Below, piece after piece: positions 19,685 through 58,680 of a DNA stretch of 64,000 bases. Source of the DNA: Ginglymostoma cirratum (lineage: Eukaryota); the NCBI GenBank assembly GCA_024137785.1, contig JAHRHZ010000288.1, forward strand, positions 735,468 through 799,467, in the 5' to 3' direction. The notes under the pieces are model-generated. The model searched no databases. It had not been told where the DNA came from and saw only the letters and a list, made by a program, of their open reading frames with translations. Each line of letters opens with the position of its first letter. The stretch's first letter is position 1. Position numbers and translations under genes: made by a program.

Positions 19685-21105
19685 CTATGCTGTACCCATG
19701 AGTGTATCTGCATATTTGAACCCCAGTACCAGAAGTCATCCCACCAATTAGGCACTTTGATTTCCTTGATACCCATTTGAATTTGCTCTGTCTGTGGAAC
19801 ATTTGCAAATTGTGTCCGGACATGCTGTGGTTTTTCAGATAGGAGTTTGATGCCAGTACCATATTGCTACCAATAACCTCGTATCTGAGTTCGTCACTGA
19901 CTTGACAAATATTTCATTCCCCCTGTGGATATCTGTGTGCTTGATTAGGCCTACCCTGTTTGGTATGTATTGCCTAATACAAAAGGTGATATTTATTTTC
20001 ATTCATTAATGGGATGAGAGTGTCATTGACCAGCCAGCATTTATTGGCCAGAGGGCAGTTAGGAGTCAGCCATGTTGCTGTGGGTCCGGAGTCACATGTA
20101 GGCCATACCAGGTAAGGATGGCAGTTTCCATCCTTAAGGGACATTAGTGAACCAGATGGATTTTTCCGGCAATTGGCAACAGATTTACAGTCATCATTAG
20201 ACTCTTAATTCCAGATATTTATTGAATTCAAATTCCACCATCTGCCATGGCGGGATTCAAACCTGGGTCCCCAGGACATTGTCTGGGTCTCTGGATTAAC
20301 AGTCCAGCAATAATACCACATGACCATCCCCTCTTTTACACATGAAAGTCCTGTACTGGTAGCGTTTTAAAGAAGTTGTGATGCAGTATTCTCCCTTCCC
20401 CCTAAATACTACCCATGTGATGTCTGTGTTCTGGCTCCAGATCTGGAAAGTGCAATTTTGAACAGTGTTTTTCTGAAAACCGCACATGAAGGCATGCTTA
20501 TTTGAATACATGGTGTAGGTGCGAGCAATTCCTTCCTTTGTCTGTTAACGTTTACCTAGAGTGGTACCTACAAGACATCTCTCTTTCTCAACAGCATACA
20601 GCAGGGTGCTAACATATTCTAACCATATTATTTCTTGGATAATGCTGATATTTTAAACCTCAAAGACTTTTAAACCATTTTTGATTTGGTGCTATGATCA
20701 GGATCCCCAGTACCATCCCAGTGACCTTTCTTGGGATCTCCATACAATTGTTGGTGAATTGCCATAATTGGCAATTTGAAATATTGGGACATTCCTTCCC
20801 ATGGAACCAATGCTCCATCTGCTCATCATTGATCCAAGACAGGATCTGTCTTTGCTTAGTCTGCTTGAGGTTCTCCCTTAACTGTTCAATCATCCACTGG
20901 TCATAAATGCTGCACAAGGTCCTATTTTGCTGCCTGCTGTCATCATCTATCTTTCCCTGGTTGATCTCTTTTATGTTCCTGGTGTGCTCTTCTGGAACCA
21001 TTACCAGATGCTGTTCTGCCTGATTTTTTTTAATCCCCCATTTATGCCGATTGACCAGGTGAATCCACTAGATTGCCAAAGTGACATAAAGTCAGCTGAA
21101 TTGTT
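19685..21105 (-). pseudogene. env-like glycoprotein remnant (interrupted by SINE at 19991-20331)
   Basis: Fragments NSADFMSL; TLCSIYDQWMIEQLRENLKQ...ILSWI; CGFQKNTVQNCTF...GKGEYCITTS..YQY; VPNWWDDFWYWGS (~19717-19755). Downstream of pol on the same strand. Family assignment is inference. Confidence 0.55.
19991..20331 (-). mobile_element. tRNA-derived SINE, near full length
   Basis: B-box GGTTTGAATCC; tail ccaataaatgctggc...catcccattaatgaatgaaa shared with LINE 3' ends at ~24990 and ~63540. Confidence 0.82.
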
Positions 21106-21129
21106 GCAAGGGTACACGCTTCTGGGCAA

Positions 21130-21770
21130 AAGTTGAATGAAACTTTGCTCGATCAGAATGGTTAGGAGGTTCAGGCCGATAAAATAAGCAAAATGTTGTA
21201 CTGCCCAGAACAAGGAATGAACACTTGACCCTGTTAAAGGAACTGTTAACCCTCCTCACTAACGTCTGGATCAGACCCACTGAAATGACAGAAGACCCAG
21301 CAGCATAGGCAATTCTCTCAGAGCAATAGAGTGTGATGTATGCTTCTCACACATAGAGAAACCCTCTACTGGTGAAAGAGTCTGGCAGGCATAGGCTACC
21401 AATCTGAGTTCATTGTGATGTACTTGGAGAAGTACAACTGCCAATGTGGCACCTGTGGCTGCAACCTCCAAGGCAAAGGGAAGTTCTACGTTGGGTATTT
21501 GCAGTGTGGGGGCTTGCACTAGGACTAGTTTTAATTCAGCTATAGCATCTGTGTGCAGTTCAGTCCATTCCTACTGGGTATCGCTTGAAAGGAGGTCAGA
21601 GAGTGGAGCAGTTTTAATGGTGAAACCATTGATGTGGTTCCGACAGTGGTGCATTGAGCCAGAAAGTGACACAACAAGCTCATTTCCCTGGGGAAGAGCA
21701 AACAGGTTATGACCTCGATGAGCTTCTCCTCTACCTCATGTTTCCCCTGTGCTCTCACTGTTCCCAAGTC
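21130..21770 (-). pseudogene. RT connection + gypsy-type RNase H remnant, split by a 129-bp inverted insert
   Basis: ORF 21271-21519 (QAPTLQIP..LPFALEVAA...LVAYACQTLSPVEGFSMCEKH) resumes in ORF 21001-21213 (FWAVQHFAYFIGLN). Confidence 0.85.
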
Positions 21771-21779
21771 TGAGTGCTA

Positions 21780-22390
21780 GGACTTCATGATCTACATCTT
21801 CTTTGGGTTAACTGTCCATCTATCACTACCTCGCACTCTGTGCAACCACAGTCATGTTTGTGACTGGTCATCACACTCTATTGCTCTGAGAAAATTGCCT
21901 ATGCTGCTGGGTCCTCTGTCATTTCAGTGGGTCTGATCCAAATGTTAGTGAGGAGGGTTAACAGTTCCTTTAACACGGTCAAGTGTTCATTCCTTGTCTC
22001 AGTCTGCGGAAGGAAATTGTCCACGTACTGTACCAAGCAGTCCAGTTGGGACTCCAGTTCTAGCCCTTCCACCAACCTCTAATGAAATATTGTTCAGAAT
22101 TGTGAAAACTGTGGAGCTTGCAGATCCCTGTGTATTGCTGGTCCTGAAACATGAAGGTGAATTTATATTGGCAGTGTTGGTTGAAGGGTGTGGACCAAAA
22201 TCCATTACTAATGTCCAGCACTGTGAAATAGTTCACCTGTGGGGTTTGATTTATCAGGCTAGTTGCTGTTGTTGGTGCTGTGATCAGAGTGGTTTTATTT
22301 AGTTCCCAGTAATTGATGGTGAGCCATCAAGAGCTGTCTGTTTTCATAAGTGGCCATTGGTGAGATAACTGTAGATACAACAGGTGTATG
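21780..22390 (-). pseudogene. Reverse transcriptase core remnant
   Basis: LDISNGFWS (22192-22218), QYKFTF, FHNS, CLVQYVDN (YVDN 22016-22027), EHLTVLKELL, VNPKK; frameshifted. Confidence 0.88.
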
Positions 22391-22401
22391 TCTCCTTATT
22401 T

Positions 22402-22605
22402 GGCGGTCGGTTTAGCTCAGTTGGCTGGATGATTGGTTTGTGAAGCAGTGTAATGCTAACGGCATGGGCTTAAAGGCCACACTGGCTGATGTTATCATTA
22501 AGGATTCTCCTTCTCAACCTTTCTTTTCGCCTGAGGTATGGTGGTTCTCAGATTAAATCACTGCCAGTTGTCTCTCTCTCAAGACAGAGCAGCCCTATTG
22601 TCTAA
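22402..22605 (+). mobile_element. tRNA-derived SINE of a second family, inserted between pro and RT
   Basis: Head ggtttagctcagttggctgga (A-box); cgcctgaggtatggtggttctcagattaaatcac central motif. Confidence 0.65.
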
Positions 22606-22689
22606 TCCACAATTCCCCCACAGTACAATTTCTCTGTACGTATGTGCCTGTCGCAGTCTGCACTGGGGCCTCATTGAGTTTGGGCTTTT

Positions 22690-22930
22690 GCCAAATAGTT
22701 GGCTGGGTCAAAAATTGAATTACACTGCCTCATAAGGGCTAAGTCTAAGATGTGCTCGGCATCGAACGGGGATTAACCAACACTGCTCTGTAAGACCCGA
22801 TCTCCCAGTTTAAATTCTATAGGGTCTCCTGTAGGTGCCCATTGAATCCATTCAGAAGAACTTTTTTCCGGGTGCACCATGTATTATCAAAATCTGAGGA
22901 TATGTTAAGTGTCATTCTGGACCCTCTGCA
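22690..22930 (-). pseudogene. Aspartic protease remnant
   Basis: LLNGFNGH flap-like (22835-22855), PIEFKLG, EHILDLALMRQ..IFDPAN (ILG.D-like); catalytic D[ST]G not found. Confidence 0.5.
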
Positions 22931-22999
22931 TCCTATAAAAACTTAACAGGGCAGACTTCCACCTCACTGTGTGCCAGGGGCCTTTCCAGGGGCCTGTTC

Positions 23000-24250
23000 G
23001 GTGCTGCACAACCATTGAGGAGAAGTGTGGCTCTGTGTACACTCACAGAGAGTGTAACCCATGGAGGGTGTGGGTACAAGGAGTTAGAGGGTGAGATTTC
23101 CTCCAGTAAGCTTGGCTGTGTGATCTTCCCCACCAGATTAACTGTTGCTTGTCTCTACAGTCCTTCCAGCAGCATTGGCTGGGGTCTTGAGCCTGGCTCC
23201 TGTGGTGACACTGACTGCCTGGGTACCCTCCAGCTCCTTGCGTGTGCGACCACAGTTGTAACATTTTCTTGACCTGCTGCTGCTGATCCGTATCTATCAC
23301 TGCAACATAGACTAATGGAGGCAGATGGCTCCAATAATAACACCCCTTGTTTCATTTGCCTACATTATTTCTCCGCATGGAACTGGGGTTTGGTTTTATA
23401 AGAGGCATATTTTTCCCTTACCTGGTTTGGGGTGCCCCAACTCATGAATCTCTTTGTGCCAAGGCCAGACCATCACCACTATCACCCATTGTTCTGTGTG
23501 GATGTTGTCTGTGTTTTCTTCACTGCTTCGATGGTACACTAGACAAGCTGTGTCCACAGGCACCTGGCTAATGCAGTTGGGTTCTTTCCCGTTTGCTGCC
23601 TACTCTTATTTAATCCATCTATGGGATCTCCCCTGTTGTATGCTACAACGTCCAGGATTGTTGTTTTCATGGCCTGCAGCTCCCTTCCTCCCACATTCAG
23701 AGGATTGGGACTTGGGCACATTAATATTTATTTTACCTCCACGACATTTTTTTGAGCCTATGGAGAACTTTTATTAGTGGGTGCTGTCAAAATACATACA
23801 GGGGCCAGCTGTGGGCTCAAATGCAGGGATTTTTTTTGCTATCTCTGTCAATTGCACCACCGTAAACAGGGTTGTATAAGTAATTGGATTCTGGCTGTCT
23901 GATAGGTTATGGTTAATGGGTTCATTCGGGAAAGGGAAGATCCTAGGGGTGCTGAAGGATCTCCTCTCTTCAGAAAGGAAGGAGAGAGTCCCCAATCTTC
24001 ACTGCTGTCAATGTGTCTACAGATTGTCATTTGCTCCTAGTATGTCCCATAATCAATGTCCCCATCTGATTCTATTGTCTCAAGTGCACAAATCATTCCC
24101 TTTTGTGTGGAAAGTTAGGACTTTCATTCTCCAATCTCACACTGGTGTTTTGAATTGTTAACAGTGTGGGCTGTGTTTTCTTTGTGTATCTGGTGCAGGC
24201 ATCTCAGAGCAACCTGGAGGTTTTTACATTTCTTGGTTGGTTCATCCAAA
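23000..24250 (-). pseudogene. gag remnant with a broken CCHC zinc knuckle
   Basis: RKCYNCGRT at 23243-23269, with HARS in the adjacent frame; ORF 23774-23995 is gag-like; lies upstream of pro/RT. Confidence 0.6.
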
Positions 24251-24309
24251 GCTTTTTTGGGCTGTGTCTACATCACTGACTGTGCACTGTGCCTCCATTG
24301 TTTGACCAC

Positions 24310-58300: not shown

Positions 58301-58352
58301 TTACTGCTCCTGAAGCATTCTGACGGAAAATTTGTTCAGAGACTTTATATAT

Positions 58353-58680
58353 ATTCATTCATGGGATGTGGGCATCTCTAGCTAAGTCAGTATTTATTGC
58401 ACATCCCTAATTGCTTAGAGGGTAATTAAGAGTCAACTACATTGTTGTGGGACTGGAGTCACATGAAGGTCAGTTCCCTTTCCTAAACAGTATTAATAAA
58501 CCAAGTGCATTTTTCTCCAACAATTGTTTCATGGTCATCTTTCGAGTCTTAATTCTATATCTTTATTGAATTCAAATTCCACCATTTACTGTGGCAGGAT
58601 TTGAACCCAGAACCCCAGGACATTACTCGGGTCTCTGGGTTAATAGTCTAGCAAAGGTAACACTAGGCCACTGCCTCCCC
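58353..58680 (-). mobile_element. tRNA-derived SINE, full length
   Basis: A-box TGGCCTAGTG, B-box GGTTCAAATCC; tail cccacatcccatgaatgaat. Confidence 0.85.

Follow-up and report, generated by a model that had tools for sequence, protein, structure and literature searches.

Remnant of a shark endogenous retroviral envelope with a predicted F-type fold and a likely co-opted intact relative

A multi-copy family of shark endogenous retroviruses

The window (the whole stretch of 64,000 nucleotides of Ginglymostoma cirratum DNA that was analysed) very probably carries the broken env gene of a multi-copy shark endogenous retrovirus (ERV), likely of the snakehead retrovirus group. According to structure prediction, the envelope of this virus is a class I fusogen of the F type, and one distant envelope of the family survives undamaged, likely as a gene of the host. 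An earlier note, made from the letters of the window, had described an env-like remnant with nine peptide motifs and without the ISD and CX6CC motifs of retroviral envelopes. All nine motifs were located on the minus strand in the order described, in two frames between positions 21102 and 19720 (NSADFMSL starts at 21102, the others at 20920, 20725, 20604, 20484, 20457, 20394, 20346 and 19749), and neither the ISD nor the CX6CC pattern occurs in any of the three minus-strand frames. The 135-aa env frame at 20660-21067 gave 150 scored matches among 353 candidates in the 4.36-Gb genome, so that at least 150 copies are present. These matches show 35-82% identity, mostly with stops, the best match other than the frame itself having an E-value of 1.5e-33. 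The same frame matched a profile of 23 relatives, from which it had been left out, with 98.8% probability. Given the genome matches and the profile match, the motifs are not a product of chance. Relatives among public proteins were found in Mustelus, Chiloscyllium, Scyliorhinus, Heterodontus, Heptranchias, Pristiophorus, a frog and the coelacanth.

Other copies show the segment linked to pol. RT, tether, RNase H or integrase was identified upstream, on the same strand and within 7 kb, at 11 of 20 loci selected by env, with gag only at one more. This count covers the env-selected loci only; eight of 20 RT-selected loci had been picked for nearness to env matches, and env was seen at two of the remaining 12. 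Copies such as L026, L060, L073 and L075 have the gene order gag-PR-RT-tether-RH-IN(zinc finger, rve, SH3)-env, and Pfam matches across copies follow in the order RVT_1, RT_RNaseH, a weak RNase_H (PF00075, E = 0.0044), Integrase_H2C2 and rve, with zf-CCHC also matched. In the subfamily of the window copy, an element of approximately 0.8 kb follows env and is also present ahead of gag. In another subfamily, L057 (G000:C40:5692830-5702829) has two LTRs that share 89% identity over 727 bp, together with an env with long open frames and a partly deleted pol. The family is thus an ERV of the Retroviridae, with gag-pol-env between LTRs and the PR-RT-tether-RH-IN order in copies other than that of the window. 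In L026 (5527-6830), L060 and L075, at least about 1.3 kb with several short conserved frames separates integrase from the furin site, perhaps leaving room for an env leader/SU and for accessory genes too.

Anatomy and decay of the window copy

The window was mapped onto ten other copies of the family, which gave the following features.

23050..24296, minus strand: gag remnant, 5' end of the surviving part (64-74% DNA identity to L023, L073 and L076)
22600..23035, minus strand: protease region, decayed (tblastn with the natural PR-RT frame of L026; DNA match to L024 and L076)
21946..22350, minus strand: reverse transcriptase palm remnant (PF00078, E = 3.5e-4; DISNGFWS and QYVD motifs)
21816..21940, minus strand: displaced piece, in other copies just upstream of RT (matches L024 5761-5683, L037 6037-5906 and L076 7970-7915)
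21340..21813, minus strand: RT thumb and tether, a degenerate first RNase H (PF17919, E = 7.4e-13)
21210..21338, no strand assigned: 129-bp inverted duplication of 21869-21997, inserted in the tether (96% complementary)
21126..21210, minus strand: C-terminal piece of the tether (matches L039 6174-6099, L073 3455-3549 and L076 6682-6595)
21057..21124, minus strand: splinter of the true (second) RNase H, containing NSADFMSL (L039 5621-5571, within its PF00075 frame; L073 4064-4111; L076 6151-6087)
20334..21042, minus strand: env remnant part 1, with the second half of HRA, domain III helices, domain I strands (VTGMVLGILII, LLYAVE) and Cys-rich domain II (mapping to other copies)
19996..20333, no strand assigned: SINE-type repeat within env (other copies run across the site without it)
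19691..19994, minus strand: env remnant part 2, with the end of domain II, a shortened HRB and the W-rich membrane-proximal motif (mapping to other copies)

The regions of L023, L073 and L076 that match the window gag coincide with gag marker matches, and L024 has a zf-CCHC match. No LTR match was found upstream of gag within the window, the leader and 5' LTR being gone. The tether carries LEVAA in place of the catalytic Asp motif, as do 17 of 30 stretches. A deletion of approximately 0.45-0.5 kb, relative to other copies, follows its C-terminal piece. NSADFMSL, taken in the earlier note for an HR1-like part of env, belongs instead to pol: 21124-21057 aligns with the second RNase H of L039, L073 and L076 (73-79% DNA identity), and env in the window starts at about 21042, in the middle of HRA. 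The statement that env abuts RNase H is correct for this splinter of about 65 bp, but the larger RNase H-like Pfam match (21271-21570) is the tether. The deletion of integrase and of the N-terminal part of env, which had been suspected, is borne out by alignment to other copies. Approximately 2.6-3.8 kb is lost after the splinter, namely the rest of RNase H, integrase, the env leader/SU-F2, the furin site, the fusion peptide and the first half of HRA.

Within env, part 1 has one frameshift and two in-frame stops and part 2 one frameshift and one stop, giving two frameshifts and three stops for the whole remnant in its best frames. The insertion between the parts had also been proposed, and its limits are placed at 20333-19996; a second copy of the repeat lies at 58352-58680 of the window. 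SINE is the name given to it in the earlier note. Part 2 ends before the TM helix, as the same note had supposed: relatives and other copies carry a hydrophobic helix directly after the W-rich motif, the latter continuing beyond 19691 into it. Approximately 0.5 kb past this helix, other copies carry the 0.8-kb element that is also present upstream of gag and is therefore the LTR; in the window the 3' UTR and 3' LTR are gone. The window copy, which has lost both LTRs, integrase, the env N-terminus, furin site, fusion peptide and TM, is a dead fragment, and the remnant alone is ordinary junk. The arms of the inverted duplication in pol (21210-21338 and 21869-21997) are 96% alike, compared with about 72% between family copies; the duplication is therefore much younger than the ERV insertion. 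Two long and nearly perfect inverted repeats of a similar kind, their arms about 1 kb apart and consisting of common repeat sequence, occur elsewhere in the window at 42566-42805/43911-44150 (98%) and 12928-13111/14131-14314 (93%).

Predicted fold of the envelope

The paramyxovirus/pneumovirus F-like topology suggested in the earlier note agrees with structure predictions for two natural sequences of the family, namely P0016, a 739-aa relative from Chiloscyllium, and L007, a 306-aa frame of the same genome that begins at RHKR and is 46-49% identical to the env pieces of the window. The P0016 model has a mean pLDDT of 59, with 316 of 739 residues at 70 or more and the first 178 residues unresolved. 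Foldseek analysis of this model against the PDB gave human parainfluenza virus 3 (hPIV3) F (E = 9.4e-11) and RSV F (E = 2e-10), and all 46 matches listed were F proteins of paramyxoviruses or pneumoviruses. VIA aligned residues 190-600 with hPIV3 F (Z = 12.1, 332 aligned, rmsd 10.0) and with postfusion Nipah F (Z = 11.5, 289 aligned, rmsd 5.1). Matches in BFVD were mononegaviral and baculoviral F-type proteins, a walleye virus Env and feline foamy Env. For the L007 model (pLDDT 62), foamy Env was the top Foldseek match (E = 1.5e-6), followed by hMPV F (4e-6), with RSV and measles F also found. This model is the weaker of the two, its best library-wide VIA match, to foamy Env, reaching no more than Z = 5.7 (192 aligned, rmsd 10.2), a score that helical proteins of no relation also attained. 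TM-scores are low (0.25-0.37), and ESM Atlas neighbours are Baculo_F clusters at 0.91-0.93, which is weak by recognition value. Against individual walleye viruses, the P0016 model matched the Env of walleye epidermal hyperplasia virus (E = 3.8e-9) and of walleye dermal sarcoma virus (2.2e-5), hinting that the epsilonretroviral Env may be F-like too.

The 135-aa frame of the window maps to residues 335-456 of P0016, within the range aligned to hPIV3 F, and it is by homology to these folded relatives that an F-type fold is inferred for the window copy itself. A furin site precedes the fusion peptide in L007 and in all five full-length proteins (it is deleted in the window copy), and a C-terminal TM is present in relatives and other copies. 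Of 31 proteins of the family, none has CX6CC and one has a loose ISD pattern (P0003, in the N-terminal part, outside the TM subunit); by these motifs the family Env is not a gamma-type retroviral Env.

The likeness to viral F is structural. No match to the Fusion_gly profile (PF00523) was found among the window frames, L007, 20 relatives and the intact proteins, and a search of the whole genome with this profile was equally empty with its controls silent as well, hence uninformative. Searches of PDB sequences with env by phmmer and by profile returned coiled-coil noise only and no solved F, and nothing came back from word-based searches of proteins with either the window frame or an RT frame, which is weak as evidence. 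The family Env is thus predicted to be an F-type class I fusogen from its models, with no match at the level of sequence. In common with F of hPIV3, RSV, hMPV and Nipah virus, it has a predicted F2 strand, an HRC-like helix, furin site, fusion peptide, HRA, domains I-II, HRB and TM in equal order. It differs in that identity is only 9-15% and in being encoded by a retrovirus, with no separate gene for an attachment protein seen. An F-like fold has been described in a true retrovirus, for the foamy Env (PDB 8rm1, 8ozh), where the available text of that work (PMC11468914) gives F-like domains I-III as the shared part. The foamy receptor-binding domain is inserted in domain III, whereas the additional part of the shark protein is N-terminal and its furin site follows a short F2-like segment (PMC11468914).

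Relationship to known retroviruses

A search of PDB sequences with the family RT ranked gammaretroviral-type RT (1e-28) above foamy (3e-20) and Ty3 (2e-13). The PQGF/GFH-type RT motif was seen in 20 of 30 stretches, a loose pattern for which chance matches are possible, and the Loki/Ty3-type motif PFG[LY]xN in none of the 30. The RT motifs of the family match the row of snakehead retrovirus (SnRV) in the alignment of PMC7947760. Over 110 aligned positions, the RT of L026 is identical to SnRV at 68 and to Loki-Lca at 50, counted by eye for those two only. By these motifs and this count, in place of a tree, the family RT likely resembles that of SnRV more than those of lokiretroviruses. A scan of IMG/VR with the RT frame gave five pattern matches, none of them confirmed.

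SnRV-like ERVs are known from the elephant shark as CmiERV lineage I (PMC4422223) and form the clade Huo (PMC6001957). With these the shark family shares the RT motifs, the highest by-eye RT identity, a cartilaginous-fish host and gag-pol-env with LTRs. The available parts of these two papers describe no F-type Env for the group. Likewise, no description of an F-type Env in SnRV-like ERVs was found in the literature searched.

It is improbable that the element is a lokiretrovirus, which would be the first in cartilaginous fish. Loki is described as having a tether and RNase H together with an F-like Env that carries RxKR, a coiled coil and TM; a Loki Env shows the same layout by eye in the supplement of PMC7947760, and relatives of the family occur in a frog and the coelacanth, hosts with known Loki. 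The tether, though, is common to all retroviruses, and in the family it reads LEVAA against the LETG type of Loki. The Loki RT motifs (CPFG[YL]xNSP, no Gln before YVDD) are absent from all 30 stretches, the count over the L026 RT favours SnRV, and the family Env has an additional N-terminal part of about 180 aa compared with Loki. As a caveat on the SnRV placement, the Loki RT is also fairly close to that of the family. According to the accessible text of PMC7947760, lokiretroviruses were not found in any of six chondrichthyan genomes screened and Loki Env resembles PF00523, a profile with no match detectable here. The Env related to Mononegavirales F, the RxKR site and the dual RNase H (tether plus RNase H) are thus shared with lokiretroviruses as these are described in PMC7947760 and PMC9040795, while the RT and tether motifs and the N-terminal Env part set the shark family apart.

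It is highly improbable that the family is a Ty3/gypsy element of errantivirus type with an env like baculovirus F, or that an F gene of a paramyxovirus landed by chance beside pol. The Atlas neighbours are Baculo_F clusters, F-type env is described as widespread among Ty3/gypsy elements (bioRxiv 2023.10.26.564294) and paramyxovirus-like EVEs have been reported in sharks, but dual RNase H and retroviral RT motifs speak against Ty3/gypsy, env is constantly found behind integrase in many copies with shared LTRs, and likeness in sequence to paramyxovirus F is absent. Both readings are already refuted for the most part by the ranking of RTs and by the gene order that copies share.

An intact envelope gene conserved among sharks

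The earlier note had advised a search for intact, possibly domesticated paralogs, and one such gene was located outside the window at G000:C263:30444495-30446759 (L041:1456-3720; hereafter the C263 gene). It has 754 codons in an open frame of 764 codons without stops and is single copy in the Ginglymostoma genome by DNA comparison. Its protein is 93.5% identical to a protein of Chiloscyllium (GCC29952.1), 86.1% to one of Scyliorhinus (XP_072333160.1) and 85.9% to one of Heterodontus (XP_067889054.1). The four orthologs are pairwise 85-94% identical (Chiloscyllium-Scyliorhinus 86%), and all retain the furin site, 19-21 cysteines and 8-9 sequons, with a TM peak near residue 705 in the two that were profiled. 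The N-terminal part of the C263 protein has Ig-like neighbours at 0.84, a lead only. A polypyrimidine tract with AG lies two bases before the ATG, in the manner of a splice acceptor. In a tree of 22 env rows the orthologs form a clade (support 100/99) with branches of 0.02-0.06, against 0.28-0.56 in decayed copies; this clade stands apart from the subfamily of the window and so represents another sub-lineage. No gag or pol of the family was found within 30 kb on either side of the gene (60 kb). An RT 24 kb upstream was considered as its pol and rejected, being gypsy-type (LPFG, YLDD) and 24-28% identical to the family.

The C263 gene is likely a co-opted F-type envelope, that is, a host gene, judging from its sequence. 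It shows the features by which captured env genes are recognised, namely an intact frame, a single copy, conservation across species and a purifying pattern. The frame is also covered by contigs of two other organisms, from which it differs by about 2.6% and 8.4%; synteny was seen as flank matches in two organisms only. Among the 29 in-frame differences shown (of 241 found), 17 are synonymous and 12 non-synonymous, where a synonymous share of 23-29% would be expected (p 4e-5 to 8e-4). Four indels in other species are listed, all upstream of the ATG, and there is one further gap without a listing.

There is little probability that the gene is an old insertion merely not yet decayed in slow-evolving shark genomes. 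The shark substitution rate is slow (2.2e-10 is assumed in PMC4422223) and, because neutral rates may be very slow, high identity alone proves little for this gene. Hardly any reads were found in one polyA RNA run of the same species label, in which about two read pairs, out of 1.9 Gb of data, fall in the frame. Against an undecayed insertion, at least 150 amino-acid changes among three species have arisen without a stop, where about 10 stops would be expected under neutrality (P about 5e-5), and there are also the synonymous excess and the listed indels, which fall solely outside the frame. The gene was further found in contigs of runs merely guessed to be RNA; no RNA dataset is listed as containing it, and the protein collection lacks the exact Ginglymostoma protein.

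With the C263 gene, galeomorph sharks probably captured an F-type retroviral env before bullhead, carpet and ground sharks diverged some 200 million years ago, and have since retained it in a working state, as a fusogen of the host or as a block to entry. The source would have been a snakehead-like family, with an F-type Env ancestral to several basal retrovirus groups. To our knowledge, this capture would be older than the captured env genes of vertebrates, and its fold other than that of the gamma-type syncytins. A further captured env gene is Iris of Drosophila. Syncytins and percomORF/Percom-env resemble the C263 gene in being single-copy intact env genes without pol that are conserved over host orders, with a purifying pattern and a splice acceptor. 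The vertebrate examples in the available text of PMC12813294 are of gamma type. The screen of 40 chondrichthyan genomes in that paper required the ISD (CKS17) motif and CX5-7C and would likely not have kept the C263 gene; motif-based env screens in general likely miss it because it is without an ISD. One supplement file of PMC12813294 contains none of its peptides or accessions. A described shark F-type or captured env was not found in the literature, most subscription papers lying outside the search. The intact F-type paralog, as a likely co-opted gene, is likely what is new here, retroviral F-type Env being of a known kind (foamy viruses, lokiretroviruses). A survey from 2020 of co-opted retroviral genes in vertebrates may bear on this novelty.

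Proposed mechanism and significance

The ancestral Env would have formed trimers of a type I glycoprotein, with furin cleavage at R-x-K/R-R. HRA would drive the fusion peptide, now at a free N-terminus, into the target membrane, and HRB would then fold back to give a six-helix bundle, as in paramyxovirus and pneumovirus F and foamy Env; cleavage, insertion and bundle are inferred here by analogy with paramyxovirus F and foamy Env. The N-terminal extension of about 180 aa, for which a weak lead suggests an Ig-like nature in the intact gene, would have bound the receptor. Spliced to a host 5' exon, the C263 gene would yield a membrane-anchored, furin-cleavable protein. Its putative role could be cell fusion, tentatively held slightly likelier than receptor blocking against related viruses, which is possible but doubtful; some other putative role is a little more doubtful still.

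Several sharks are placental, and the C263 gene offers a way to test whether sharks make use of a captured envelope. Since egg-laying species carry it too, the gene cannot have originated in a placental role. If the capture in galeomorph sharks is true, this is an undescribed domesticated env with a fold not of gamma type, and F-type Env would be ancestral in several basal retrovirus groups. The snakehead-like group would join the foamy viruses and lokiretroviruses as retroviruses with an F-type envelope, the epsilonretroviral Env having also been matched. This bears on whether retroviral Env had a single origin in an F-like ancestor, a question for which four scenarios are set out in the available text of PMC7947760.

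Outside sharks, a full-length relative of 723 aa was identified in the frog Pelodytes ibericus (P0021, KAM8960540.1), 29-31% identical to the shark gene and with a similar N-terminal extension, and a fragment in the coelacanth Latimeria (P0028, XP_005994612.1). Both group loosely with the shark gene in the 22-row tree (94/90, long branches), and each may represent an independent capture or an ERV of recent origin.
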